A model generated the notes under the pieces. That model made no database searches. It worked only from the letters and a program-made list of their open reading frames with translations, and was not told where the DNA came from. The position numbers and the translations under genes are program-made. 64,000 bases of DNA from an uncultured Pseudomonadota bacterium (lineage in GTDB: Bacteria > Pseudomonadota > Gammaproteobacteria > Burkholderiales > JALYOK01), in contig CADEHE010000009.1 of the NCBI GenBank assembly GCA_902826775.1, positions 107,726 through 171,725 of the forward strand, read 5' to 3'. Numbering within the stretch: position 1 is the first letter of the stretch; every line of letters starts with the position of its first letter. This document shows, in pieces, positions 31,428 to 44,873 of this stretch.

Positions 31428-32579
31428 TTACGGCCGGATTTTGACCAGATCCTTGAGCACGCCCTCCAGGCCACCGAACACCGAGATCTTGTCGATCTTC
31501 TCGGTCACCTTTTCCAGCGTTTCAAGCTCCTTCAGCCGCAGTGCGACCGGGTTGTCTTCCATCACCTTGGCGGTGTTGAGCAGAGAACGCGTTGCCGCCG
31601 TTTCTTCGCGGCGGCGAATGACGTTCGCCTGCGCAGCCTTCTCGGCTTCAACAACCTTGGCGAGGATGGTCTTCATCTCGCCCGGCAGGATAATGTCCTT
31701 CACCCCGACAGCCTCGACCTCCAATCCGTAACCCGACACACGGCGCTTGATATGCTCGCTCACCACGTCGTCGATAATGCTCTTGTTTTCAAGCAACTCG
31801 TCGAGACTACGCGTGCCCACCGCCGCACGCAGCCCAAACTGCAGTTCCTTGTACAAGAACTCCGTCGGCTTGGCCTGCTTGGCAAACGCCGTTTGCACAT
31901 CCGTGAAGCGATAGCCGGCCGTCAAGTTCACGCGCAGGCTGACCTTGTCCTTGGTCAAGATCTCCTGACCGGCCACGTCGAGCGCCTGCAAACGCAAATC
32001 GACCGTGTCGACCTTCACGTCACGCAGGTAGCGCCAGAAGTAATGAAGTCCCGACGCCAGCAAACCTGATTGCAGTTTGCCGTCGACATAAAGCAAGCCC
32101 ACGCTGTGCTCCGGCACCAAAGCCACGAACACGCCCTCGCTGCCGGCGATCTTGATGCCTCCGCGCAGAATGAGTGCGGCGGTTTCTGGCATCAACGCCG
32201 GCGCGATCGCGAAGTCCGATACGATATCGATCGTCTCGAACTCGACATCGATGTAGCCCCTCCAGTAGAGTCGGCGCGTATTCGGCGCCAGCACTTCGAC
32301 CAGCACAGCGTTTTCATAGCGCAATGCGATCTGCGTCGCGCTGAGCTCGACGGCTGTAAATTCGCGCCCGACAACCTCCGGCTCGGCCTTCATCAAGTAA
32401 TCAGCCAGCTTGTGGTCGAACGCGGTCTTCGCGAGCGAGAACTTCTCGATCGTGAGACGCTTGAGCGGGTCGAAGTACAGGTACTCGCCCGCCCCTAGAA
32501 CCTTGACGAAGTCGCCGCGCCGAAGCAACAGCGCGCGTTCGTCCTTCTTCACATGAAACTTAGTCATCAACATGGTCAT
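31428..32579 (-). CDS. SPFH/band-7 (slipin-like) domain protein
   Basis: Band-7 core followed by a coiled-coil C-terminus; start taken at MTMLMTKF. Confidence 0.7.
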   Translation of the reverse strand: MTMLMTKFHVKKDERALLLRRGDFVKVLGAGEYLYFDPLKRLTIEKFSLAKTAFDHKLADYLMKAEPEVVGREFTAVELSATQIALRYENAVLVEVLAPNTRRLYWRGYIDVEFETIDIVSDFAIAPALMPETAALILRGGIKIAGSEGVFVALVPEHSVGLLYVDGKLQSGLLASGLHYFWRYLRDVKVDTVDLRLQALDVAGQEILTKDKVSLRVNLTAGYRFTDVQTAFAKQAKPTEFLYKELQFGLRAAVGTRSLDELLENKSIIDDVVSEHIKRRVSGYGLEVEAVGVKDIILPGEMKTILAKVVEAEKAAQANVIRRREETAATRSLLNTAKVMEDNPVALRLKELETLEKVTEKIDKISVFGGLEGVLKDLVKIRP

Positions 32580-32853
32580 TCTCCTTGTTCTCAGATCAAT
32601 TGGTTCCGGCTTCCCGACCGCACAACGGGCATCCGTGTTGTCCGTGCCGGAGCACAGCCGCGCCTTGCGTGGGTCGCATCGGCCAGGCTCGATACACTCC
32701 AAGCCAGGCCAAGCAAATCACGCTCGGCTGTTGCTGCCTCGCGCGCGAACGCCAACAGCGCACAAGTCATACGGGCGGTGTGGCTGGCGATACACTGCCA
32801 ACCACCGAAGCCGGCCCCGGGTACTACAGTCGAAAGCCTTTCAAGGGCTTTGC

Positions 32854-32926
32854 TTTTCCAGCGGGATTCGAACCCGCGACCGATCGGTTATAAGCCGATT
32901 GCTCTACCCACTGAGCCATGGAAAAT
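32854..32926 (-). tRNA. tRNA-Ile(TAT)-like
   Basis: 73 nt; acceptor UUUUCCA/UGGAAAA; D-stem GCUC/GAGC; anticodon loop CUUAUAA; T-loop GGGTTCGAATCCC; no CCA. Confidence 0.6.
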
Positions 32927-33000
32927 GGAGCGTGCGGTAAGAGTCGAACTCACGACCTCGAGCTTTGGGGCTCGCGCTCTACCACTGAGCTACGCCCGCC
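32927..33000 (-). tRNA. tRNA-like with 6-nt anticodon loop (CCCAAA)
   Basis: Good acceptor, D- and T-arms and CCA, but the anticodon stem CGAGC/GCUCG encloses only 6 nt. Confidence 0.45.
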
Positions 33001-33167
33001 TATATCCATCGCTCCCGCATCGCGGTATGCGCCGATCCAACTCAAGGAGGGACGAGCGCACCAGGGAGGAACTCAAGAGCCTCACCCGCTGACAATGCGT
33101 TCACGACGAATTCGTTCTTGCCGTACTCGGCAAGATTGGATGTGGCAAATTGAAGGCAGAATGAGCT

Positions 33168-33282
33168 GGCACCGCCGGCAGGACTCGAACCCACAGCTAC
33201 GCAAAGGCAGGCGAAGGCTGAGCTTTGCTCATCTTCGCGTGCGTTCGAAGCGCGGCACTCTTCCATTGAGTTACGGCGGTGT
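33168..33282 (-). tRNA. 115-nt tRNA-like gene with 40-nt insert (type A)
   Basis: Acceptor CACCGCC/GGCGGUG plus CCA, D-arm and T-arm GGTTCGAGTCC are present. The anticodon/variable region is replaced by ACGCGAAGAUGAGCAAAGCUCAGCCUUCGCCUGCCUUUGCGU, which is identical to the insert in 36691-36806. Confidence 0.5.
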
Positions 33283-33288
33283 AAATCT

Positions 33289-33363
33289 GGTAGGCCCTGC
33301 AGGAATCGAACCTGCCTGGTGCGGAGTAAAAGTCCGCTGCCTCGCCGCTCGGCCAAGGACCCA
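33289..33363 (-). tRNA. tRNA-Lys(TTT)
   Basis: Anticodon stem GCGGA/UCCGC with loop CUUUUAC; T-arm GCAGG-TTCGATT-CCTGC; CCA encoded. Confidence 0.65.
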
Positions 33364-33370
33364 CATTGTT

Positions 33371-33474
33371 GGTTGGCGCGCACGCGCCGCGATAGGCGGC
33401 GCATGCTCTTTTCCAATCGAACCAAGCCGATCCTGTTTGTAAGACAGGTGTTTCCGCCAGGAAACCACGCGCCA
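33371..33474 (-). tRNA. tRNA-Val(TAC)-like with ~30-nt insertion 3' of the T-loop
   Basis: Acceptor GGCGCGU/GCGCGCC, D-stem GUUU/AAAC and anticodon arm CCUGU-CUUACAA-ACAGG are intact. The T-stem 3' half is replaced by an insert carrying the GCGCCGC/GCGGCGC hairpin. Confidence 0.4.
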
Positions 33475-33482
33475 GCTATCGT

Positions 33483-33726
33483 TCATAGTGATCGCGCATC
33501 ACGCCGTCGAAACCGGCCGCTGCGCAGACAGCATTTCTTGAAAGCTCTTGCTTGATCCGCACGGGCACGGATCGTTGCGACCGAGCTTATCGACGAGCTC
33601 TTTGTTACCGTGCACGACGCGTGCGCCACGTTTAACGCGGGTCTCCGATGGGAAACCTCTGCGGTGTTTGCTAGTGAGCTCGAAAGCTTTCCTGTTCTTC
33701 GTAATCGATTGCGTGCTTGTTCATGA
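33483..33726 (-). pseudogene. SEC-C motif domain small protein, disrupted by two frameshifts
   Basis: [14 protein letters not shown] (frame 1) continues in frame 2 through ...[15 protein letters not shown] and in frame 3 through [10 protein letters not shown]...; this reconstitutes the SEC-C zinc motif DPCPCGS..K.KKCC. Confidence 0.5.
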
Positions 33727-33782
33727 TGCACTCCCTCTATTGGTGCCCGGCTTACGCGGTCCAGGCTTCGCCGCATGATTGT

Positions 33783-33858
33783 TGGTAGGGGATCCAGGAT
33801 TCGAACCTGGGATGGTCGGCTTCAAAGACCGCTGCCGTGGCCGCTTGGCTAATCCCCT
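33783..33858 (-). tRNA. tRNA-Gln(TTG)
   Basis: Acceptor AGGGGAU/AUCCCCU; anticodon loop CUUUGAA with one mismatch in the stem; T-arm CCAGG-TTCGAAT-CCTGG; CCA encoded. Confidence 0.6.
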
Positions 33859-33870
33859 ACGTGTATGAGT

Positions 33871-33946
33871 TGGGGTGACCGACCGGAATCGAACCGGTAC
33901 CGCCGCGTTCACAGCGCGGCACTCTTGCCGTTGAGCTACGGCCACC
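33871..33946 (-). tRNA. tRNA-His(GTG)
   Basis: Encoded G-1 pairing with discriminator C gives the 8-bp acceptor; anticodon arm CCGCG-CUGUGAA-CGCGG; T-arm ACCGG-TTCGATT-CCGGT; CCA. Confidence 0.8.
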
Positions 33947-33956
33947 GTTGTAGTGT

Positions 33957-34034
33957 TGGCTCCGGCCAGTGGGATCGAACCACTCTCGTTCGCCGTTAAC
34001 AGCGGCGCGCTCTCACCTTGAAAGCTAGACCGGA
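33957..34034 (-). tRNA. tRNA-Asn(GTT)
   Basis: Anticodon arm CGCCG-CUGUUAA-CGGCG; T-arm AGTGG-TTCGATC-CCACT; CCA. Confidence 0.75.
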
Positions 34035-34042
34035 AAGGAGTT

Positions 34043-34117
34043 TGGCAGACCAGGAGGGATTCGAACCCCCATACGCGGTTTTGGAGACCGCTGCTCTGGC
34101 CGTTGAACCACTGGTCT
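34043..34117 (-). tRNA. tRNA-Trp(CCA)
   Basis: Anticodon arm GCGGU-CUCCAAA-ACCGC; perfect acceptor AGACCAG/CUGGUCU; CCA. Confidence 0.75.
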
Positions 34118-34191
34118 GTAGGCCGCGAGCGGCGCCGAGGGCGGAAACAACCTGCCACCGGCGCATCGCGGATAGAACTAACGCGCTCGCG

Positions 34192-35412
34192 CTACCCTTT
34201 CACGCACAGCACTTGCTTCAGGGTATGCACGACTTCGACCAGATCCGATTGCGCCGCCATCACTTCGTCGATGGACTTATATGCGCCCGGGATCTCGTCA
34301 ACCACGCCGCTGTCTTTACGACACTCGACACCGGCGGTTTGCTGCACCAAGTCCTCTTGCGAGAAGCGGCGCTTGGCTTCACCCCGGCTCATGCGGCGCC
34401 CCGCACCGTGCGAGCAGGACGCATACGCATCGGCATTCCCCTTGCCCTTCACGATGTAGGACTTCACCCCCATGCTGCCCGGGATGATGCCGAGCTGGCC
34501 TTCACGCGCTGACACCGCCCCTTTGCGCGTCACCCAGATTTGTTCGCCGAAGTGTTCTTCCAGGTTAGCGTAGTTGTGGTGACAGTTGATCGCTTCGAAT
34601 TGCGCTTCGATCTTACGACCGAGCGCATGCTCCAGCGCTCGCTTCACCAAATGCAGCATGATGTCGCGGTTAAGCGCCGCGTAGTCTTGGCACCAACGAA
34701 GGGCTGCGATGTACTCGTCGAATTCCTGACTGCCTTGGTCTAGCCACGCCAGATCACGATCCGGCAAGTGTGTTTGGTTCTGCCGAGCGAGTTCTCGAGC
34801 GGTGGTGACCGCGGCCTCGCCGACAGTTTTGCCGACGTTGCGGCTGCCGGAGTGCAGCATGATCCACACACCTTGGGCTTCATCTAGGCACAACTCGATG
34901 AAGTGATTTCCGCCACCGAGCGTACCAAGCTGTTGCCACATGCGTTTGTGATCAAATTTGCCCACACGCGCCATGATTTGCAGGGCATCGAAGCGCGGCA
35001 TCAACGCCTCGATGCGACGCTTGAGCGCCATGCCTTCAAGGCCTTGGTTACCAGGCTTGACGCTATCGCCGTGGTAGTTGAAGCCGACCGGCACATCGCG
35101 TTCGATCTGGTGACGAACTTTTTTCAAACTGTCCGGCAGATCGGAGGCGGTCAGTTGTGTCTTCATTGCCACCATGCCGCAGCCGATATCTACGCCCACT
35201 GCAGCGGGGATGATCGCACCGCGAGTTGGAATGACGCTGCCAACTGTTGCACCCATGCCGAAATGCACGTCCGGCATGATCGAGATATGACCAGCCAGGA
35301 TTGGTAACGCGGAAATGTTGCGGATTTGCTGCAACGCTTGCTGCCCGACTTCCATATCGCCGGTCCATAGGCGCACGCCCTTTATCGTTTGTTCGTATTG
35401 GTTCTTAAGCAT
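34192..35412 (-). CDS. rtcB: RNA-splicing ligase RtcB (3'-phosphate/5'-hydroxyl RNA ligase)
   Basis: ~406 aa; RtcB motifs IMPDVHFG, GSVIPT, AVGVDIGCGM and C-terminal HGAGR; SD GGAAAGGAGG lies 5 nt upstream of ATG 35412. Confidence 0.85.
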   Translation of the reverse strand: MLKNQYEQTIKGVRLWTGDMEVGQQALQQIRNISALPILAGHISIMPDVHFGMGATVGSVIPTRGAIIPAAVGVDIGCGMVAMKTQLTASDLPDSLKKVRHQIERDVPVGFNYHGDSVKPGNQGLEGMALKRRIEALMPRFDALQIMARVGKFDHKRMWQQLGTLGGGNHFIELCLDEAQGVWIMLHSGSRNVGKTVGEAAVTTARELARQNQTHLPDRDLAWLDQGSQEFDEYIAALRWCQDYAALNRDIMLHLVKRALEHALGRKIEAQFEAINCHHNYANLEEHFGEQIWVTRKGAVSAREGQLGIIPGSMGVKSYIVKGKGNADAYASCSHGAGRRMSRGEAKRRFSQEDLVQQTAGVECRKDSGVVDEIPGAYKSIDEVMAAQSDLVEVVHTLKQVLCVKG

Positions 35413-35452
35413 GACGCCTCCTTTCCGTACGGCGTTATTGTGGTTGAGAAAA

Positions 35453-35530
35453 TGGTCAGTGCGGTGAGATTCGAACTCAGGACCTCCGCGTTCCGGACGC
35501 GGCGCGCTGGTCAAGCTGCGCTACGCACTG
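35453..35530 (-). tRNA. tRNA-Pro(CGG)
   Basis: Perfect acceptor CAGUGCG/CGCACUG; D-stem GCGC/GCGC; anticodon arm CCGCG-UCCGGAA-CGCGG; CCA. Confidence 0.75.
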
Positions 35531-35536
35531 GAAATA

Positions 35537-35733
35537 TGGTCCTTGGAGTTGGGTTCGCACCATCCCCGCGCAGCGTGGCCCCTTGGTACGTGGGCAGCGA
35601 TGCGGGCGTACTCGCGCCGATAAACGTTAGCACGGTCGATGCGCGCCTACACGGTCGCTCGTTCCGAGGCGCCTCGTTTCGGCGCGCCTCGCAAGCATCG
35701 GTCGCGCGCTCTGCTAGGCTGAGCTACCCAAGG
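35537..35733 (-). tRNA. 197-nt tRNA-like unit with ~125-nt internal insertion
   Basis: Acceptor CCUUGGG/UCCAAGG plus A-CCA and canonical 5' GUAGCUCAGC...GAGC D-arm; atypical T-loop (GGUGCGAACCC); GC-palindromic internal insert, no canonical anticodon arm found. Confidence 0.35.
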
Positions 35734-35743
35734 AGATTGTTAG

Positions 35744-35816
35744 CAGGGGTGCTTGGATTTGAACCAAGGTCATTCGGTTTCAGAGGCCGACGTTCTCGCC
35801 GCTGAACTACACCCCG
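35744..35816 (-). tRNA. tRNA-Gln(CTG)
   Basis: Perfect D-stem GUUC/GAAC; anticodon loop CUCUGAA; T-arm CUUGG-TTCAAAT-CCAAG; 1:72 is a C-U mismatch (compare the weak U1-A72 of Gln tRNAs); no CCA. Confidence 0.55.
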
Positions 35817-35825
35817 CTTGATAGG

Positions 35826-35902
35826 TGGTGCCGTCGGCCAGGTATTGAGCCTGCCTCTCGGGCTTTTCAGACCCGCGCTAATCCGTCTCAGCTACAGCGG
35901 CA
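35826..35902 (-). tRNA. tRNA-Phe(GAA)-like with aberrant T-arm
   Basis: Anticodon arm CGGGU-CUGAAAA-GCCCG; T-loop CTCAATA with a bulged stem. Confidence 0.5.
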
Positions 35903-35908
35903 TTCATT

Positions 35909-35983
35909 TGGAGATGCGCCTCGGAGTCGAACCGAGTTCTCCCGCTCTGCACACGGGCACCTAAGCCGTTCGGCCAACGCATC
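35909..35983 (-). tRNA. tRNA-Cys(GCA)
   Basis: Anticodon arm CCCGU-GUGCAGA-GCGGG; T-arm CTCGG-TTCGACT-CCGAG; CCA. Confidence 0.65.
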
Positions 35984-35990
35984 ATGATTC

Positions 35991-36065
35991 TGGAGCCGCA
36001 TTCGGGAGTTGAACCCGCTTCCCCGGTTTACAAAACCGGCGCATCACCGCCAATGCTTGTGCGGC
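35991..36065 (-). tRNA. tRNA-Thr(TGT)
   Basis: D-stem GCAU/AUGC; anticodon arm CCGGU-UUUGUAA-ACCGG; CCA. Confidence 0.7.
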
Positions 36066-36071
36066 CGTACT

Positions 36072-36148
36072 TGGTGGTTCGGGCTGGAGTCGAACCAGCG
36101 TCCTGCGGGTTATGAGCCCGCTGCTCTTCCGTGCTGAGCTAGCGAACC
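36072..36148 (-). tRNA. tRNA-Met(CAT), elongator-type
   Basis: Anticodon arm GCGGG-CUCAUAA-CCCGC; paired 1:72, so not an initiator; CCA. Confidence 0.75.
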
Positions 36149-36154
36149 GAAATC

Positions 36155-36231
36155 TGGCACCCCTGGCAGGATTCGAACCTGCACCGGCGCGGGTAGAAGC
36201 CGCGTGCTCTGATCCGTTGAGCTACAGGGGC
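36155..36231 (-). tRNA. tRNA-Arg(TCT)
   Basis: Anticodon arm CGCGG-CUUCUAC-CCGCG; T-arm GCAGG-TTCGAAT-CCTGC; CCA. Confidence 0.75.
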
Positions 36232-36237
36232 AATTGT

Positions 36238-36315
36238 TGGTGCGACGCCTGCGAGTCGAACGCAGAAGCCATCCGGTTTAAGCGGACGAGGTATACCGAT
36301 TCCCATCGGCGTCGC
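36238..36315 (-). tRNA. tRNA-Leu(TAA)-like with short variable arm
   Basis: Perfect acceptor GCGACGC/GCGUCGC; anticodon arm GUCCG-CUUAAAC-CGGAU; class I-length variable loop and an atypical D-region; CCA. Confidence 0.5.
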
Positions 36316-36325
36316 AATTCGTTGA

Positions 36326-36419
36326 TGTGCCGCCCGAGATTCGAGCTCGGAAGCCGAAAGGTTTGAGCTTTCGAGGGGACGGCAAGGGGCTCTGCCCTCT
36401 GGTCAGCCGTCAGCAGCAC
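36326..36419 (-). tRNA. tRNA-Leu(CAA)-like, 94 nt, with a hairpin inserted in the D-loop
   Basis: Acceptor GUGCUGC/GCGGCAC; D-stem ACGGC/GCCGU encloses the GGGCAGAGCCC hairpin; anticodon arm with loop CUCAAAC; T-arm CCGAG-CTCGAAT-CTCGG; no CCA. Confidence 0.4.
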
Positions 36420-36429
36420 ATGGTTGATC

Positions 36430-36508
36430 TGGCGAGGCGTAGGGGATTTGAACCCCTGATCTTCGGATCGACAATCCGATGCATTCAGCCGGACTATGCT
36501 AACGCCTC
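36430..36508 (-). tRNA. tRNA-Asp(GTC)
   Basis: Perfect acceptor GAGGCGU/ACGCCUC; anticodon arm UCGGA-UUGUCGA-UCCGA; T-arm AGGGG-TTCAAAT-CCCCT; CCA. Confidence 0.8.
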
Positions 36509-36535
36509 AAAAATCCGCAGCACCAAAGCTGCGGC
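36509..36535 (-). terminator. rho-independent terminator-like hairpin inside the array
   Basis: Minus strand reads CCGCAGCUUUGGUGCUGCGG followed by AUUUUU. Confidence 0.4.
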
Positions 36536-36589
36536 AAAACCCAACTCGCAAACGTGTGAAACGCTGCCAAGTCAGGAGGAGGAGACTGT

Positions 36590-36682
36590 TGGCGGAGAGA
36601 CAGGGATTCGAACCCTGGCATCATCGTTACCGACGATTCTTGTTTAGCAGACAAGCGCCTTAGTCCACTCGGCCACCTCTCC
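36590..36682 (-). tRNA. tRNA-Ser(GCT)
   Basis: Type II D-arm GCCGAGUGGACUAAGGC; anticodon arm CUUGU-CUGCUAA-ACAAG; long variable arm; CCA. Confidence 0.75.
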
Positions 36683-36690
36683 ATTGATGC

Positions 36691-36806
36691 TGGCATCCCC
36701 GGCAGGATTCAAACCTGCGACCACGCAAAGGCAGGCGAAGCCTGAGCTTTGCTCATCTTCGCGTCGATTCGTAATCCGTCGCGCTATCCGCTGCGCTACG
36801 GGGATG
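36691..36806 (-). tRNA. 116-nt tRNA-like gene with 40-nt insert (type B)
   Basis: Perfect acceptor AUCCCCG/CGGGGAU plus G-CCA, canonical D-arm GCGC-AGCGGAUA-GCGC and T-arm GCAGG-TTTGAAT-CCTGC. The central region carries the same 40-nt block as 33168-33282. Confidence 0.5.
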
Positions 36807-36812
36807 GCGTGC

Positions 36813-36900
36813 TGGTGGAAGGCAGGTCGAGTCGAACGCCAAGCCTCGCGGCTCCTTCTGCTTTCAAGGCGGTGCCCAGGCCCCCCCAGGGTTACCTTCC
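36813..36900 (-). tRNA. type II tRNA-like, Ser(TGA)-like loop, degenerate stems
   Basis: Acceptor GGAAGGU/GCCUUCC plus A-CCA; loop CUUGAAA identical to the Ser(UGA) anticodon loop, but the anticodon and T stems do not pair well. Confidence 0.4.
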
Positions 36901-36906
36901 GTCGTT

Positions 36907-36982
36907 TGGTGGAGATGGCGGGACTTCAACCCGCACGTTCTCGCTTGCAAAGCGAGTCCTCTAGCGATTGAGCTACATCCCC
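36907..36982 (-). tRNA. tRNA-Ala(TGC)
   Basis: G3:U70 identity pair present; anticodon arm CUCGC-UUUGCAA-GCGAG; T-arm GCGGG-TTGAAGT-CCCGC; CCA. Confidence 0.8.
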
Positions 36983-36993
36983 GTGAATCTTGC

Positions 36994-37068
36994 GGTGCGT
37001 CGCCCAGGAGTTGAACCTGGACCTTCCGGATTAAGAGTCCGACACTCTGTCAGTTGAGCTATCGACGC
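36994..37068 (-). tRNA. tRNA-Lys(CTT)
   Basis: Anticodon arm UCGGA-CUCUUAA-UCCGG; T-arm CCAGG-TTCAACT-CCTGG; 7:66 mismatch; CC encoded. Confidence 0.65.
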
Positions 37069-37071
37069 ATG

Positions 37072-37173
37072 TGGTGCGGGCGGTCGGTTTCGAACCGACG
37101 GCATCGAGTTTGGAAGGCTCGCGCACGCGAGCGCAGCCGAGCACCACCGTTATTGCATCTGAGCTACACCCGC
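37072..37173 (-). tRNA. 102-nt tRNA-like gene, anticodon undetermined
   Basis: Acceptor GCGGGUG/CGCCCGC plus A-CCA, UA-GCUC D-arm start and T-arm GTCGG-TTCGAAA-CCGAC; GC-palindromic central region. Confidence 0.4.
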
Positions 37174-37179
37174 CAATAC

Positions 37180-37255
37180 TGGTGAACCGTGCGGGGCTCG
37201 AACCCGCTACCTCCGGCTTGAAGGGCCGGGCGCGCGACGCTTTGCATTACGGTTC
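37180..37255 (-). tRNA. tRNA-Glu(TTC)
   Basis: Perfect acceptor GAACCGU/ACGGUUC; anticodon arm CCGGC-CCUUCAA-GCCGG; T-arm GCGGG-TTCGAGC-CCCGC; CCA. Confidence 0.7.
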
Positions 37256-37260
37256 ACACA

Positions 37261-37336
37261 TGGAGCAGACAGCGAGCCTCGAACTCGCAGCCTCGACGCT
37301 GGCGGCGTCGCGCTCTACCAACTGAGCTATGCCTGC
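37261..37336 (-). tRNA. tRNA-Gly(GCC)
   Basis: D-arm GCUC-AGUUGGUAG-AGC; anticodon arm CGACG-CCGCCAG-CGUCG (C33); CCA. Confidence 0.7.
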
Positions 37337-37511
37337 CCTCAATCTGTGTCTAGCCTGCCGCCCCGCTCGGCGAAGCATCGAACAAACCGCGTGTGAGGAC
37401 ACGATCAGCTCGCCTTCGCCGAGCGACGACAGACTTTTTTGCCACATCCAACTTGTAAAAGATCAAGCCGCGTGCCCCCGGTCGCTATGCCGGCGCGGTA
37501 CTGCCAAAATT

Positions 37512-37621
37512 TGGTGCCCCGCAGGGGCCGCAAGGGACCCTGCCCTTTGCTTAGCCGAGATTCGAACTCGGATCATTCGGTTTCTAAGACCGACGCGTAT
37601 GCCTTGTTCCGCCAGCGGGGC
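37512..37621 (-). tRNA. tRNA-Leu(TAG)-like with 32-nt insertion between T-arm and acceptor 3' strand
   Basis: Perfect acceptor GCCCCGC/GCGGGGC plus A-CCA; Leu-type D-arm UGGCGGAACAAGGCAUACGCG; anticodon arm UCGGU-CUUAGAA-ACCGA; T-arm CCGAG-TTCGAAT-CTCGG is followed by CUAAGCAAAGGGCAGGGUCCCUUGCGGCCCCU. Confidence 0.4.
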
Positions 37622-37622
37622 G

Positions 37623-37710
37623 TGGTGGATGGTGATGGAGTTGAACCACCGGTGTTCCTATGGAATCCTGCTTTACAGGAAGGCGCCTTCGTCCGCTCGG
37701 CCAACCATCC
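37623..37710 (-). tRNA. tRNA-Tyr(GTA)
   Basis: Perfect acceptor GGAUGGU/ACCAUCC plus A-CCA; type II D-arm; anticodon loop CUGUAAA; 16-nt variable arm; T-arm GGTGG-TTCAACT-CCATC. Confidence 0.65.
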
Positions 37711-37732
37711 AAGAAATCTGCATAAACAAAAA

Positions 37733-37765
37733 GCCCGGGGACCTTGCGGTACAACCCGGGCTTTT
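37733..37765. terminator. bidirectional rho-independent terminator at the upstream edge of the tRNA array
   Basis: AAAAAGCCCGGGG...CCCGGGCTTTT perfect GC stem flanked by A/T runs. Confidence 0.5.
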
Positions 37766-38153
37766 GGTGTTCGATCAATTGATCGGTTACATCAAGTACT
37801 TCTCCCGAATTGCACACACGTATGCCGGCTCATCTCCGCTATTGAGCGCAAAGCCAGCGTCATGCGAACCCATACCTAACGGCTGGACGCACAAGGACGC
37901 GGCGGCGCGCTTTGCGGCGCGGTTCCGGTCTATGTTCATTGATGTCCTGTTCGTCAGCATGGTCGTGTTCGTGAAATTAAGGAGACGGCTCGTTCGTTAC
38001 GTCGCGCAAAGTGGCAGATGCCCAATCGGCGCGATGCTCAAGAAATGACATCGTAAGGGCTGAGTAACTCGCTGTCAAGCATTTTATGGAATATATTTTC
38101 AGATAATGCAATTTCTGCTACACTTCGCCCATCGATTTGTGAGGGTCGATACC

Positions 38154-38399
38154 ATGACATCTACTACTTCTACTAAGCCGCGCCGGCTCAAATGGCGCAC
38201 TCGTGTCGTGATGGCTGAGCGGGGCGTTCGCTCCGTTTCGGCCCTGCGCCGTCAACTCGAAGTTCTCGGCATCAAGATCTCGGATGCCCAGCTCGGGCGC
38301 ATCGTCGACGGTAAATCCAGTCACTTCAATTCAGCCGTACTCGGCGGGCTGCTTGCCGTGCTGAACTGCGGTCTTAGCGACTTGATCGCCGTTCGCTAG
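38154..38399 (+). CDS. helix-turn-helix (Cro/C1-like) domain protein
   Basis: 81 aa from MTSTTSTKPRR; HTH-like RSVSALRRQLEVLGIKISDAQLGRIVDG; followed by a terminator hairpin at 38405-38440. Confidence 0.45.
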   Translation: MTSTTSTKPRRLKWRTRVVMAERGVRSVSALRRQLEVLGIKISDAQLGRIVDGKSSHFNSAVLGGLLAVLNCGLSDLIAVR

Positions 38400-40292: not shown

Positions 40293-43200
40293 TTAGCTGC
40301 CGCGAAGCGGAATGATCTCCGCGTAGACCAAGCGTTCGTCCACCGCGATGCGATCGTGCGGCGTGCCGCCTAAATTGGCGCGCTCGATGCGGTCACTGTA
40401 GTAGCGCTCGTACTCGCGCACCATCAGCCGTAGTGGTTGGTCGGCCAAGTTCGCCGGGATTGCCACGCTGCGGTCGAAGATCGGCGCCAGCTGCGCGCTG
40501 GCGCCGGGCGTGATCTCGACTTGCGCAGCTGTGACGCCGCCAGCCGCGCCGAGCACAACGCCGGCAAGCAGCGTAGGCCGGCTCGGCGCCGTGCCGGCAA
40601 CAGCGAAGACCCCCGTCTCCTCCAAGCGCGGTGACGCAACGCTAGTCGCTCCGAGCGCAACGCCCAAATCGGTCACCGGCGTGAGCACCGAAGGCGCACC
40701 GCCTTGCGGCGTGGCATCAGCCCACACCGCGGTGCCAGGCACATCGTGCCACGCCAAGTCAGAATCGATCTGCGCGTCGCGCGTTTGCAGCACGGCTTCG
40801 ATGCGATTCTTGTGCGCGTCGCCGGTAGGGATCGACGGCGAGAACGACAGTCCGATCCAAATCTGCTCGCCTTGCGGTGCCTTCACGCTGCCAGTCTCGG
40901 GCGCCAGGCCGTAGACTTTCACGCCGAGCGCGGTGCCGTCGGCGGCGGGTTGGACGTACAAGTTACGGTGCGGCGCGACTTGCGCGAACTCCGCCAGCGC
41001 CACTTGCGAGATGCGGGCCTGTGCCAACGCGTTCGGCTGGTATCGCACCAGCGCTAAGCGAACGAAGGGAAAATAGCTGGCGAGGCTGATGTCGATATCA
41101 CAGAACCAGCGCCGGTTAGCGCCATCCCACTCAACGCGGTGACCGGCGATGTCGACATTGGCGCCGAACTCTTCGAGCCACACATTGTGCTCGCTGTATA
41201 CCCCGCGCGGGAAGGCGGTAGGACGCGGCCAATTTGCCGTGATCCCGGAGTTGAACAACGGATCGACGCCCCACAGCGTGACGAAGGGCTTGGCAGTGTT
41301 GGGCAGTTGCGCCATCGCTTGAGTAGGTAGCGCTACGCCTAGCAATTCGCCGTCACCGGAGGAGAACCACGGGCGCTCGAGGTACACGCGCAGACCGCCG
41401 CCGCGGCGCGAGCTCACGTAGCTTCCGTCGGCGGCGGGAAATTGGCGTGACCAGCCGAAGGTCGGCAGGACATACTGAATCTTCGGCGCTACCGGGCGCG
41501 CACTTGCGCGCACCATCACGCCGAACTTTGCCGCACCGGCGTCAGGCAATACCGGCGCGCCAGGATCATCTCCCGAGCCGAACTTAACATTAATGCCGTC
41601 AAAAGGATCGCCTTCGCGGATTAGATTCTTTACTTCGTCGGTGAGTTTCACCGGGAAGAATTCGCGGAAGCGCGTCGTGGCCACCAGGCGGTAGCGAATC
41701 AAGCGAAACTTGGTGTCGCCGAACTCATGCACGTCGCCGCGCACTTGCTTGTCTGCCAAGCCGTTGGGCGCGGCGATTTCGCCGAGATCGAACACGTTCT
41801 TGAAGTTCTCCGGCAGACGCACCGGCGCCAGGCGCACGCTCGCAGCAATGCGCCGCGGTGCGGGTTCGGCCAGATCGTCGATCCATTCGCTCCACTCACC
41901 CAGCACTTCGACTTGGCCGGTCGACGGCCCATGCAGGCGCACTTGAGTGCGCAGCCGCGCGTTGGTTGCGCCCATTGCACGGCTCGTCGCGATCAGCAAG
42001 AACTGCGGGGCGCATACCGGCTGTTGCGTAGCGTGCGTCAGCGTTAAGTCACGATGCGGCGCAATCATCCAATGGCTGCCCGCGAGCGCGTAGCGCCAGG
42101 CGTTGTCGCGCTGTGCGGCGTTCTCGATCCAGTCGAGCACGCCGAAGTGATCGAGCGTGTCTTTGCGCGGGACGCTGGCGTAGCGCACACGCGCGATGCG
42201 CCCTTTGGCCAGAAACACAGTGAGCACGCGCGCTTGCGCATCCCAACTGGGCGCACCGTCATCGGCAAATGCCTCCGCGCAAACGCTCGCGTCTAGCGCC
42301 GCGCCGCGCTCGACTACATGCAAGCGCAAGCCGCGCGCGTCGGGCCACGCCTGATCGTAGTCGACGATGAGCACGAGTTCTTGGTTCGGCAGACGCTCGA
42401 TGCGGGCGCCCTCACCAAGGGCTCCTTCCGCACTTACGCCGGGTAGGCCGCGAAACACGACGCCGCCCGCAGCTACATCGGGCAAGTAGGGCACTACCAA
42501 CTGCGCTTCGCGATGAACAAAGTACTGCCCGCCGCTTAACCGATCGCCGCTCGGATTGGTTTCACTCGGCGCGGCGATGGGCAGATCGGCTTTGGTGACG
42601 CCGCGCGCGCTCGGCGGCGTAACGAGTTCGACCTGGCCGCTCGTTACATCCTGCAATGATCCCGCTTCGCGCGCTGCGATGTCGTACCCCTCCTGCACCT
42701 GAGCGCTGTTGGCGGGCTGGCCGATGGCGGCGTCGAATGCGCCGTGCGTTTCGGCCATGAGTTGCGATGTTTTGGGCGGCGCGAAGTGGCGCGCGGCAAA
42801 ATCGCGGTACTCGAAAAAATCCTCACGCGTGGAACTAAAGGGCTCGGTCTGCAAGTAAGCAGCCGGATCGGAGTCGAAGTTGCTGCGCACGACCAAGTGT
42901 TCGATCGATTCACCCTCGGACACTTTCGCATCGAGCACGACCACCGGCGGATCGAGCGGCTCGAAGCGTTGATAGCGCACTCGCTCGCTGGCGTAGTTAT
43001 CGTCGCCCTCTTTGATATTGATGCTATTGCCAGCCAAATCGACGCAGCGCGCGCGCATGCGATAGCCGCGTCCGAAGCGCAGGCGCGGCAATGAGCCTGG
43101 CGCGACCCGGAACTGGGCGATGATGCCGCTGCCTTGCTTAGCCTCGTCTTTCACCTCTGTCACGCGCTCGCCTTGCGCAGCGTTGTCGGCGTCCGCTACT

Positions 43201-44873
43201 GGCACCAGCGTGCGGCCCGGGCGTGGGACGGCCAAGCTCCAGCCGTTCCACTTGAACAGGGTCTCGTGCAAGTAGTGATTGTTGTCATCATTCTCGTTCG
43301 ACGTGGTCGAGGCGCCTTTGACGTAGCCCTCGTCGACTTCTTCCGGCATGGCGATCGGCGTGCCGTCCTGCAGGCGGTAGCTGCCCACGCGCTGCATGAG
43401 CGAACGCCAGTTGCCATCGTCGATGTCGACACGGTAACCGCGCAGCACGTCTTCTGCGAAGAGCGGCGCGGGCGTCGCGTTGCTTTCGATCTGTTGGTTC
43501 AACTGCGCAGCGTTCAAGCTTTGCTGCGCCGTGCGCAACGCGCGGCCATGGCGCGATAATGCCAAGCCGCCGCTGCGTAGCGCTGCTAAGCCAGTGTCAT
43601 TCGGCGTCGTGTAGGCAGCCTGTGCGTAGATCACGGAATCGGGGCTGCTCTCTTGCATTTGCGCGGGCAGGCGCTGCACCAGCGTGCGCAGCAGGCTGAT
43701 GGTTTGGTTGACTGTCTTCAACGCCGCGCCGTCGGGATCGACTTGACTCAAGTCGAACAGATGTTTTTCATTGGCATAGCGATCGTTGGTGTCGGTCAAA
43801 CGCAACTGTCCCCGCTCGATTTCCTCAGAGTTGCGCGCGCGCATCGTGAAGCGGTCGGCATACAAGCTGATCGCCACGACCGGCGTCACATCGGTTTGGT
43901 TCAGCACGTGGTTCGGCAACAGCTTAGGCAGCAAGCGCATGGTGCCGAGCGGGAACGGCGCCGGGGTTTTGAACTCGATGTCGATGATCAGCCCTAGTGC
44001 ACGCAAGATCTGCGGCATATCGGCTAGTGCGGCAACCTTGCGATGGAAATCGAACTTTGGTTGCGCCGGCGGCGGCGGGACTTGGGTGCGATCGGGGTAG
44101 CGCAGGTAGTCGGGCTTGTTCTCCACGCGCGAGTAGAAGCGGTTGGCTTGGTAGAAATCAAACTCGGCGCGCGTGGCGAAAAGGCTGGTCGGATAGTTCG
44201 ATGAATTCGGATTGAATGCGCGCGGCTTGCGCGCTGCAATCGGCGCATTGAGATCGGCTTCCGCGCCGAACAACTGGCGGTTGATGGTTTGGTCCAGTTT
44301 GTCGCGCTGCTCCTTGCTGCCAAAAAAGCGCTCAAAACCGGAGTGGATCGGCGCATGCGGTCGCTCGGCGTTGTACGCGCGCTCAAACTCGCGCATGACC
44401 GTGCTGCGATCGATGCCAAGCTCGCCCAGCATATTAGTGAGCGCGCTATCGGCCTGATCGAACGGCAGCAGCTGCGGCAGTTTATCCGGCGCCGGCGCAG
44501 CGGCAAGCGTACCGTAGTGGCGGCGCGTGAAGTTCATGATCGCTCGCACCTGATATGAGTGCAAGCGCGGCAAACTCATATCCTTGAACTGAAATCCTTC
44601 GACGAAGGTGTCGGTGGGAAATACACTGCGCCACAGATCGCTGTCGGGGTTGGTGGCTACTTTGACTTCGAGCGCTTGGCCGTTGATTTCGACCTCGAAA
44701 CTCATGTTACTCAAGGTGCGCGGCCAATCGAGCCACTCGTCAAACGCGCCGAGCGTTTGTTCGTTAGCACTCTCCGGTGTCAGGCGCGGCGAAACCACGA
44801 TCGAGGCGCGCAATCGCCCCGGTTTGCCGTAGCCATTTGGCAATACTGGCCAAAGGATCTTTTGCTTAGCCAT
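40293..44873 (-). CDS. giant hypothetical protein (1526 aa)
   Basis: Uninterrupted ORF with host-like GC, 16 bp downstream of a second giant ORF on the same strand; no family recognised. Confidence 0.6.
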   Translation of the reverse strand: MAKQKILWPVLPNGYGKPGRLRASIVVSPRLTPESANEQTLGAFDEWLDWPRTLSNMSFEVEINGQALEVKVATNPDSDLWRSVFPTDTFVEGFQFKDMSLPRLHSYQVRAIMNFTRRHYGTLAAAPAPDKLPQLLPFDQADSALTNMLGELGIDRSTVMREFERAYNAERPHAPIHSGFERFFGSKEQRDKLDQTINRQLFGAEADLNAPIAARKPRAFNPNSSNYPTSLFATRAEFDFYQANRFYSRVENKPDYLRYPDRTQVPPPPAQPKFDFHRKVAALADMPQILRALGLIIDIEFKTPAPFPLGTMRLLPKLLPNHVLNQTDVTPVVAISLYADRFTMRARNSEEIERGQLRLTDTNDRYANEKHLFDLSQVDPDGAALKTVNQTISLLRTLVQRLPAQMQESSPDSVIYAQAAYTTPNDTGLAALRSGGLALSRHGRALRTAQQSLNAAQLNQQIESNATPAPLFAEDVLRGYRVDIDDGNWRSLMQRVGSYRLQDGTPIAMPEEVDEGYVKGASTTSNENDDNNHYLHETLFKWNGWSLAVPRPGRTLVPVADADNAAQGERVTEVKDEAKQGSGIIAQFRVAPGSLPRLRFGRGYRMRARCVDLAGNSINIKEGDDNYASERVRYQRFEPLDPPVVVLDAKVSEGESIEHLVVRSNFDSDPAAYLQTEPFSSTREDFFEYRDFAARHFAPPKTSQLMAETHGAFDAAIGQPANSAQVQEGYDIAAREAGSLQDVTSGQVELVTPPSARGVTKADLPIAAPSETNPSGDRLSGGQYFVHREAQLVVPYLPDVAAGGVVFRGLPGVSAEGALGEGARIERLPNQELVLIVDYDQAWPDARGLRLHVVERGAALDASVCAEAFADDGAPSWDAQARVLTVFLAKGRIARVRYASVPRKDTLDHFGVLDWIENAAQRDNAWRYALAGSHWMIAPHRDLTLTHATQQPVCAPQFLLIATSRAMGATNARLRTQVRLHGPSTGQVEVLGEWSEWIDDLAEPAPRRIAASVRLAPVRLPENFKNVFDLGEIAAPNGLADKQVRGDVHEFGDTKFRLIRYRLVATTRFREFFPVKLTDEVKNLIREGDPFDGINVKFGSGDDPGAPVLPDAGAAKFGVMVRASARPVAPKIQYVLPTFGWSRQFPAADGSYVSSRRGGGLRVYLERPWFSSGDGELLGVALPTQAMAQLPNTAKPFVTLWGVDPLFNSGITANWPRPTAFPRGVYSEHNVWLEEFGANVDIAGHRVEWDGANRRWFCDIDISLASYFPFVRLALVRYQPNALAQARISQVALAEFAQVAPHRNLYVQPAADGTALGVKVYGLAPETGSVKAPQGEQIWIGLSFSPSIPTGDAHKNRIEAVLQTRDAQIDSDLAWHDVPGTAVWADATPQGGAPSVLTPVTDLGVALGATSVASPRLEETGVFAVAGTAPSRPTLLAGVVLGAAGGVTAAQVEITPGASAQLAPIFDRSVAIPANLADQPLRLMVREYERYYSDRIERANLGGTPHDRIAVDERLVYAEIIPLRGS

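Follow-up and report, generated by a model that had tools for sequence, protein, structure and literature searches.

A long tRNA gene array with an embedded RtcB gene in a betaproteobacterial lineage and its probably degenerating, insertion-bearing members

The array and its insertion-bearing units

The stretch of DNA analyzed here (hereinafter the window; 64,000 nucleotides (nt) of contig CADEHE010000009.1 from an uncultured bacterium of the Burkholderiales) carries a long tRNA gene array (L-array) at positions 32852-37710, which consists of about 30 co-oriented units, nearly all with an encoded CCA, and in which several members are interrupted by extra sequence. All coordinates of array units and of the RtcB gene are window positions on the minus strand. 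The count combines three sources: ARAGORN called 20 tRNAs within the interval, the Rfam model RF00005 added the Glu, Phe, TCC, Arg(ACG) and Arg(TCG) units along with part of the TAG unit, and direct reading of the sequence supplied the Val(TAC), CAA, Ile(GAT)-derived and Ser/Sec-like units, bringing the total to about 30. Most of the spacers are 1-12 nt long. Directly after a tRNA-Pro unit, the array contains a gene for an RtcB RNA ligase of 406 amino acids (aa) (34192-35412), which gives a full-length match to Pfam PF01139 (E = 2e-127) and possesses the HGAGR motif. A single strand thus holds about 30 units within 4.9 kb, RtcB taking up 1.3 kb of this length, and the locus exceeds the number and density by which L-arrays are recognized (20 or more tRNA genes in the same orientation, with 2 or more per kb). 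Two further tRNA genes called by ARAGORN, Pro(TGG) and Ser(GGA), stand outside the array within the window.

A sequence-only reading of the window had described unusual architectures for the TAG, Val(TAC) and CAA units, a 197-nt unit and a unit with a 6-nt anticodon loop, and all of these are borne out by direct reading and folding. To these we add tRNA-Arg(ACG) and tRNA-Arg(TCG), which have a 40-nt insert in common, and a TCC-anticodon unit of 102 nt. ARAGORN run at lowered thresholds yielded no alternative folds that would turn the insert-bearing units into canonical cloverleaves; its call for the TAG unit was rejected, as it spans only 74 nt and leaves the acceptor unpaired. An assembly artefact is excluded by four independent per-sample assemblies that are 100% identical to the window (L170, L179, L181 and L184) and by a variant with 0.3% divergence (L182) that spans the TAG and Arg(ACG) inserts and keeps both without any indel. 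Because a strain that close has the same inserts, this comparison has no power to date them.

The Leu-anticodon TAG unit (37512-37621) is a cloverleaf with a 32-nt insert (37523-37554) between T-stem position 65 and acceptor position 66. The acceptor stem (GCCCCGC/GCGGGGC), A73, CCA and the D, anticodon (CTTAGAA) and T arms are intact; the Rfam tRNA match (37.5 bits) covers model positions 8-63 only, and removal of the 32 nt leaves a canonical 78-nt tRNA. In the Leu-anticodon CAA unit (36323-36419), 30 nt (36377-36406) take the place of the 11-nt D-loop, and the 3' end reads A-TCA, not CCA. Both inserts are copies of one element, denoted E1 (ACGCGAAGATGAGCAAAGCTCAGSCTTCGCCTGCCTTTGCGT), a block of about 36 nt with 28 of 36 positions identical, which contains the GGGCAG hairpins that had been recognized as related in the sequence-only reading. 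The ends of the block are not inverted repeats and its folds are no more stable than those of shuffled sequences (z = +1.0 and -0.9). The stem GACGGC/GCCGTC of the CAA insert reads as a new perfect hairpin. When compared with the L173 orthologue, a few positions of the block appear to be ancestral sequence of the CAA gene. All three Leu-anticodon units of the array (TAA, 36238-36315, in addition to CAA and TAG) have A73 and a 5-nt variable loop that replaces the long variable arm of bacterial tRNA-Leu, and their orthologues, of 76-78 nt, are alike in this respect.

In tRNA-Arg(ACG) (36691-36805), which was called by ARAGORN with the intron option, a 40-nt insert (36726-36765) interrupts the 3' strand of the anticodon stem at position 40/41; the intron placement at 37/38 proposed by the program was rejected, as it needs a G.G mismatch and the 40/41 solution matches the orthologues better. 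At the same structural site, tRNA-Arg(TCG) (33167-33280) carries a 40-nt insert (33202-33241) that differs by one base. The element common to both, E2 (AGGGCAGRGYCCCTTGC), is a 42-nt imperfect palindrome of the form ACGCGAAGATGAGCAAAGCTCAG[G/C]CTTCGCCTGCCTTTGCGT, with a single difference between the two copies in 42 nt; the pattern search returned 2 matches against 0 expected. This shared block is bounded exactly by terminal inverted repeats (7/8), on which the lowest-energy fold closes, with a stability that is marginal compared with shuffles (z = -1.8). The shared block extends 3 nt (CGT) into the exon, where these bases form positions 41-43 of Arg(ACG) and pair perfectly after excision of the 40 nt; the same CGT produces a C27.U43 mismatch in Arg(TCG), which suggests that E2 was copied from Arg(ACG) to Arg(TCG). 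Without its insert, Arg(ACG) has a perfect anticodon stem (ACGGA/TCCGT) and the TTACGAA loop of its orthologues; in Arg(TCG), the mismatch and a 4-nt variable loop remain. The Rfam scores are 41.6 bits for Arg(ACG), versus 58-67 in the orthologues, and 42.0 bits for Arg(TCG), versus 63-66. E1 aligns with the reverse complement of E2 at 16/17 positions, but with a score lower than the mean of shuffled sequences, so that this match was rejected as evidence of kinship between the two elements.

The 197-nt unit (35537-35733) is a tRNA-Ile(GAT) whose variable loop contains an insert of 121 nt (35566-35686); its acceptor halves are 190 nt apart. The acceptor stem (CCTTGGG/TCCAAGG), the following A and CCA are intact, the anticodon loop carries A37G and A38C, and the T-stem contains an A.A mismatch. 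The unit has no Rfam tRNA match, and its insert folds no better than shuffles (z = -0.3).

In the Val(TAC) unit (33370-33474), with acceptor strands TGGCGCG/CGCGCCA, A and CCA, the 3' strand of the T-stem is replaced by 34 nt (33381-33414) placed after the T-loop. The unit falls below the Rfam threshold, compared to 64.7 and 58.3 bits for the L171 and L173 orthologues. The replacement forms a perfect 10-bp hairpin and is the only insert that is clearly more stable than shuffles (z = -3.4); the 5' arm and loop of this hairpin are an inverted copy of the gene's own 5' leader and acceptor strand at 13/16 positions (p ~0.02). In the test of inverted matches against local sequence, the support for templating is modest, being nominally significant for the Val insert only and marginal for Arg(ACG); exact k-mer searches for a local template of the inserts were uninformative. 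On the opposite strand (33384-33402, plus), the Val insert has the form of an intrinsic terminator, with a stem of 7 G-C pairs followed by ATGCTCTTTT, probably by chance; no plus-strand gene nearby needs one. Finally, the TCC-anticodon unit (37072-37173; Rfam 43.9 bits, ARAGORN at low threshold) has about 26 extra nt in the D-arm region and is a possible seventh disrupted member, judged against a sole comparator, a distant 87-nt unit in L173.

Orthologous arrays without the inserts

Using RtcB as the anchor, we fetched orthologous arrays from two genome contigs (L001 and L002) and from metagenome assemblies (L171/L172, L173, L174, L175, L177 and L178). Their RtcB proteins are 86-97% identical to that of the window (97% for L171), and the related arrays have a common gene order, namely a helix-turn-helix (HTH) gene, array, RtcB, array, and HNH and/or Band_7. 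The orthologues of the disrupted units are devoid of inserts throughout: the TAG unit (CAG in L174) is 76-78 nt long in six arrays, Arg(ACG) 76-78 nt in five, Arg(TCG) 76-79 nt in four (L171, L173, L001 and L002), Ile(GAT) 77 nt in three (L001, L002 and L173), Val(TAC) 75 nt in two (L171 and L173), and CAA, with an 11-nt D-loop, 78 nt in one (L173). The Rfam tRNA scores are 45-67 bits in these orthologues versus 37-42 bits or below threshold in the window. Given that the orthologues are ordinary tRNA genes of 75-79 nt, the inserts are derived and specific to the window lineage. The sequence-only reading had pointed to related arrays as the place to look for conservation of the inserts, and they are absent from all of these relatives.

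Some of the units of the window bear further lesions. The Val unit, having lost the 3' strand of the T-stem, cannot form a T-arm, the D-loop and CCA of the CAA unit are lost, and the Ser/Sec-like unit of the window contains two anticodon-stem mismatches that are found in none of its orthologues. The sister arrays decay by other routes, namely deletion, transposon insertion and insertion of a miniature inverted-repeat transposable element (MITE): L001, L174 and L175 are without many units as a result of deletions, a transposon truncates RtcB in L171, and the Cys unit of L177 has no T-arm. In L002 (5276-5619), a 260-nt element interrupts the tRNA-Cys(GCA) gene within its anticodon region; the element ends in perfect terminal inverted repeats of 15 bp (AGAGCCCCTAACACA ... 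TGTGTTAGGGGCTCT) and looks like a MITE.

Degeneration and its alternatives

In our assessment, with a probability of about 0.58, the observed architectures stem from sequences that were recently inserted and copied at the DNA level in redundant members of an RtcB-bearing L-array, so that the affected units are degenerating tRNA genes and not new architectures or introns. In such a scenario, at least six members of the array, which would duplicate the ordinary tRNA genes of the cell, had short stretches of DNA, 30-121 nt long, inserted or substituted in the window lineage; E1, of about 33 nt, and E2 would each have been copied once more within the array, E1 ending up in both Leu-anticodon genes and E2 in both Arg genes; and the Val insert would have been templated, as an inverted copy, from the gene's own 5' end. 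The templated appearance of the Val insert points to template switching during replication or to illegitimate recombination, in a region rich in short inverted repeats, and the survival of the disrupted genes would be due to the redundancy of the array and the recency of the events. We infer that the disrupted units have lost their decoding function; as decoders, these genes are most likely either impaired or dead. The preservation of the acceptor stems and CCA, we infer, reflects recency and/or selection to keep the sites of ribonuclease (RNase) P cleavage and 3'-end processing; the latter is considered because the spacers of the polycistronic array are so short.

Alternatively, the inserts could be cut out of the RNA by some endoribonuclease and the halves joined by the RtcB of the array to give functional tRNAs, in a bacterial analogue of the splicing that archaeal tRNAs undergo at canonical as well as non-canonical positions. 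An RtcB-type ligase, which is one of the marks of spliced tRNA introns, is indeed present, intact and embedded in the array; removal of 40 nt mends the anticodon stem of Arg(ACG), and removal of 32 nt mends the TAG unit; two Arg genes share one element at one and the same site; and the exons are well conserved, with compensatory changes. However, the bulge-helix-bulge motif (3-nt bulge, 4-bp helix, 3-nt bulge) is found at none of the insert boundaries of six units, with counts elsewhere equal to those in shuffles, and the Rfam models for group I introns (RF00028), ribozymes and transfer-messenger RNA (tmRNA) give no match to the units even at E<=1, with sub-threshold noise at other places (tmRNA_permuted, 19.7 bits; YrlA, 24.1 bits). 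Nor is there a splicing endonuclease (EndA/Sen) or other RNase among the neighboring open reading frames (ORFs) scanned with Pfam, NCBIfam and PADLOC. Group I introns have a core of about 200 nt or more and reside in the anticodon loop; the inserts are 30-121 nt long and lie outside it. Although excision restores a tRNA in the TAG and Arg(ACG) units, it does so imperfectly in Arg(TCG), owing to the mismatch and the short variable loop, and it cannot mend Val, in which a T-stem strand is lost, CAA, in which the D-loop is replaced, or Ile, with its G37/C38. As RtcB is found in or beside tRNA arrays without inserts in many unrelated lineages (L034, L114, L149-L151, L159 and L169), its presence is explained without splicing, and the inserts are missing from every relative. 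Furthermore, all disrupted units are colinear with their orthologues, so that none is permuted. The intron-containing or permuted-like tRNAs envisaged in the sequence-only reading are thereby not supported. Splicing with sealing by RtcB finds no positive support here, and we consider it very unlikely. A narrower version holds that Arg(ACG), Arg(UCG) and Leu-like(UAG) are functional genes from which non-self-splicing inserts are excised by an endonuclease, with RtcB rejoining the ends and the inserts spreading in an intron-like manner between isoacceptors; it appears even less probable, although, if true, it would be the first case of enzyme-catalyzed, RtcB-dependent tRNA splicing in bacteria.

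The units might also be retained as tRNA-like RNAs that do not decode, be it to punctuate the processing of the polycistronic transcript, to act as decoys or sponges for toxins that cleave tRNAs, or to regulate, with the inserts tolerated or even useful. A sponge role has been proposed for array tRNAs (PMC8421152). The acceptor stem and discriminator are intact in every disrupted unit, and CCA in all but the CAA unit; with spacers as short as they are in this array, 5' cleavage of each unit also frees its neighbor; and the 6-nt-loop unit (see below) demonstrates that this family of arrays keeps a non-decoding cloverleaf, with covariation in five arrays. Aberrant units with an intact acceptor stem and CCA are found in unrelated RtcB-linked arrays as well, but the scan that detected them required intact ends and is subject to this ascertainment bias. 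Intact ends may merely reflect recency, and, as no relative conserves the inserts, nothing shows selection for them; in addition, the Val unit has lost its T-arm, which we assume to be used by RNase P for recognition. Such retention seems doubtful as an explanation of the insert-bearing units. Still less likely, in our view, are copies of small mobile palindromic elements, similar to MITEs or repetitive extragenic palindromic (REP) sequences, that are dispersed in the genome and landed in tRNA genes. The terminal inverted repeats of E2, on which its fold closes, are suggestive of such an origin, as is the MITE-like element that splits a tRNA gene in L002. Yet the search for dispersed repeats came down to two copies of E2, both in the array: pattern and BLAST searches of the remaining 59 kb of the window and of about 185 fetched loci detected no additional copy of E1 or E2, and the single match in viral contigs is a chance one, without a tRNA. 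Target-site duplications are not found at the inserts, the ends of the E1 block are not inverted repeats, and the copies of both elements contain ancestral tRNA bases of the donor gene.

Degeneration, too, has to be weighed against several observations. Apart from their inserts, the TAG unit and the two Arg units are pristine. Outside the insert, the aligned positions of Arg(TCG) and its L171 counterpart are identical, the differences between the two genes consisting of G1-to-A, a 1-nt deletion in the D-loop, the bases around the insert and C50-to-T; Arg(ACG) shows lineage-specific compensatory changes (T-A to G-C in the D-stem and G-C to A-T in pair 27-43), and the Val D-stem has gained one base per strand with pairing kept. 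The occurrence of E2 at one structural site in two genes with non-homologous flanks is not easily explained by ordinary gene conversion. In addition, E1 and E2 are each confined to isoacceptors of one amino acid, and the array encodes an RNA ligase of the kind that seals 2',3'-cyclic-phosphate/5'-OH ends. Nevertheless, the inserts are derived and non-conserved, lack known intron signals and are accompanied by other lesions. Among the possibilities raised in the sequence-only reading, decaying pseudo-tRNAs fit best, by virtue of the absence of the inserts from all related arrays, the additional lesions and the decay of the sister arrays, with the TAG and Arg units as the part that fits less well. 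The best reading of the region is that it represents an element of a known kind, namely a long tRNA array that includes RtcB and has spread horizontally, and that the disrupted units are its degenerating members.

Gene neighborhood, conserved unusual units and related systems

The array is preceded by a divergent gene for an 81-aa Cro/C1-type HTH protein (38154-38399, plus strand; PF13443), which is found in the same place in L173, L174 and L175, and is directly followed by a gene for a slipin-like Band_7/SPFH protein (31428-32702, minus strand; PF01145) that is kept in L171 and L174. Together these genes form a module, present in the window (31428-38399) and in L171 and L173-L175, that consists of the small HTH gene, tRNA array, RtcB, further tRNAs, an HNH gene (in the relatives only) and Band_7/slipin. 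Genes for rtcB and HNH proteins are typical of the vicinity of L-arrays; RtcB lies inside this array, HNH adjoins the array in L171, L173, L174 and L175, and no intact HNH gene was found in the window. The patchy distribution and variable content characteristic of L-arrays are apparent as well, with orthologous arrays of 4-27 units each in differing neighborhoods. RtcB-linked arrays also occur in Acidobacteria, in other metagenome contigs and in one viral contig, and a trio of Lys(CTT), Pro(TGG) and RtcB in the same orientation, with no more than these two tRNA genes ahead of RtcB, recurs in many unrelated contigs (L019, L113, L125, L127, L128, L130, L136 and L142) as a mini-module that ties RtcB to tRNA genes. 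RtcB is common in tRNA-rich phages, and an annotated phage or plasmid source was considered and rejected: the best match, in Burkholderia phage BcepSaruman (59%), is not in a tRNA array. A 1526-aa ORF (40293-44873, minus strand) and a 225-aa ORF near the array have no match in Pfam, NCBIfam or PADLOC, a 181-aa ORF examined as a candidate RNase or defense gene is a transposase fragment, and scans against the same three resources gave no support for the neighboring ORFs as RNases or defense genes.

Several other features of the array were noticed. A strong terminator-like hairpin with a T-run (37724-37765, minus strand), kept in L001 and L002, lies immediately upstream of the first tRNA (Tyr), and a second terminator-like hairpin (36509-36534, minus strand) is located inside the array after Ser(GCT); from the positions of these hairpins, the array is probably either more than one transcription unit or attenuated. 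An exact 14-nt inverted repeat, TTGGATGTGGCAAA, occurs at 37438-37451 (minus strand) and 33136-33149 (plus strand), in both cases in a long spacer of the array, with a distance of 4.3 kb between the two, and is a candidate operator or recombination site. The spacer at 33000-33169 is 97% identical to that of L171, compared to about 87% for the surrounding DNA. Between Gln(TTG) and Val(TAC), there is a small ORF (33483-33720, minus strand; counterparts at 5273-5515 in L173 and 8527-8775 in L171) with a SEC-C-like zinc motif (NDPCPCGSS ... KAFKKCC); this motif is divided over two reading frames, alike in the window and in L173, and may reflect a shared frameshift or a mis-read gene. The nearly universal U at position 33 of the anticodon loop is replaced by C in Gly(GCC) (37261-37336), Glu(TTC) (37180-37255), Pro(CGG) (35453-35530) and the Ile(GAT) unit. 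This C33 is kept across the related arrays L173, L002 and L001 and might be related to evasion of anticodon nucleases.

Among the unusual members of the array that are conserved are two further units. The unit with a 6-nt anticodon loop (CCCAAA; 32926-32999), identified with ARAGORN and by alignment of five arrays, has 96% of cloverleaf cells paired across these arrays; compensation is seen in two pairs, the D and T arms do not vary, and the anticodon loop measures 6, 6, 6, 13 and 13 nt. With the cloverleaf kept while the loop length varies, the alignment identifies this unit as a conserved tRNA-shaped RNA that should be unable to decode normally, as opposed to a recent lesion. Of the units considered, it is the only one for which the third possibility raised in the sequence-only reading, a tRNA-derived regulatory RNA, is plausible. 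The other such member is an 88-nt unit with a Ser anticodon (36813-36900 in the window, 5049-5136 in L001, 4475-4562 in L002 and 1916-2003 in L173), which is TGA in the window and CGA or TGA in the relatives. It combines an 8-bp acceptor stem, a 6-bp D-stem, a 4-nt D-loop, a long variable arm and a 4-bp T-stem with a conserved G.A, that is, the 8/4 shape of allo-tRNAs and selenocysteine tRNA (tRNA-Sec), and one T-stem pair covaries across the four arrays. The Rfam tRNA-Sec model scores 36.3 bits on this unit, under the 47-bit cut-off. Similar units are present in an unrelated array, L149 (5000-5088, 5266-5355 and 5361-5449).

L-arrays are described as redundant and horizontally transferred, with pseudogenes among their members and with rtcB and HNH genes in their vicinity (PMC8421152, PMC4758250). 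The window array resembles them in its roughly 30 co-oriented, tightly spaced and probably redundant genes, in its patchy distribution, with content that varies between relatives, and in the presence of some probable pseudogenes. It is unlike the described arrays in that RtcB resides inside the array, in that the host belongs to a betaproteobacterial lineage, and in that an unusually large share of the members (6-7 of 30) carry short internal insertions as opposed to point lesions or deletions. In Anabaena, the repressor TrcR jointly controls the array, the rtcB and HNH genes and a slipin gene, all of which respond to translational stress by induction (PMC8421152, PMC10272220, PMC4758250). The window array likewise has rtcB, slipin/Band_7 and, in the relatives, HNH nearby; as judged by gene content alone, these are the same kinds of genes, packed into one betaproteobacterial locus.

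The insertions themselves call to mind several known phenomena. Archaeal tRNA introns occur at non-canonical positions, and near-identical introns have been 'transposed' between tRNA genes in Thermoproteales. The similarity to these lies in inserts of 30-40 nt at the D-loop, anticodon stem, variable loop and T-arm region, in near-identical copies and in the presence of RtcB. The differences are the bacterial host, the lack of bulge-helix-bulge motifs, of a splicing endonuclease among the neighboring ORFs scanned and of conservation of the inserts, several of which replace essential tRNA bases so that no tRNA is restored by excision. Self-splicing group I introns are found in bacterial tRNA genes for Leu-UAA, fMet, Arg-CCU and Ile-CAU. 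Here, too, bacterial tRNA genes are interrupted, and one class of inserts is located in Arg genes near the anticodon arm, but the inserts are too short for the group I core, do not match RF00028 and lie at other sites. The new perfect hairpins with arms that copy adjacent sequence in inverted orientation (the Val insert and the CAA stem) are similar to template-switch, or quasi-palindrome, mutations. With MITE and REP insertions, the locus shares the terminal inverted repeats of E2 and, in L002, the MITE-like insertion into the Cys gene, whereas E1 and E2 are unlike such elements in having neither dispersed copies nor target-site duplications.

For annotation, these results imply that odd tRNA-like units in bacterial arrays should first be compared with orthologous arrays, given that the exotic shapes seen here are probably recent lesions in spare genes. 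The locus appears to offer a natural record of the decay of a redundant, acquired tRNA array, in which hairpin insertions would have been copied between paralogues while deletions and transposons affected the sister arrays, and it indicates where tRNA genes tolerate extra sequence, the acceptor ends being intact in every disrupted unit. Better candidates for roles other than decoding than the insert-bearing units are the cloverleaf with the 6/13-nt loop, the Ser/Sec-like unit with the 8-bp acceptor stem and the short Leu-anticodon tRNAs. Finally, the repressor-like HTH gene, the array, RtcB, HNH (in the relatives) and slipin make up a compact betaproteobacterial module that mirrors the kinds of genes in the translational-stress regulon of Anabaena.

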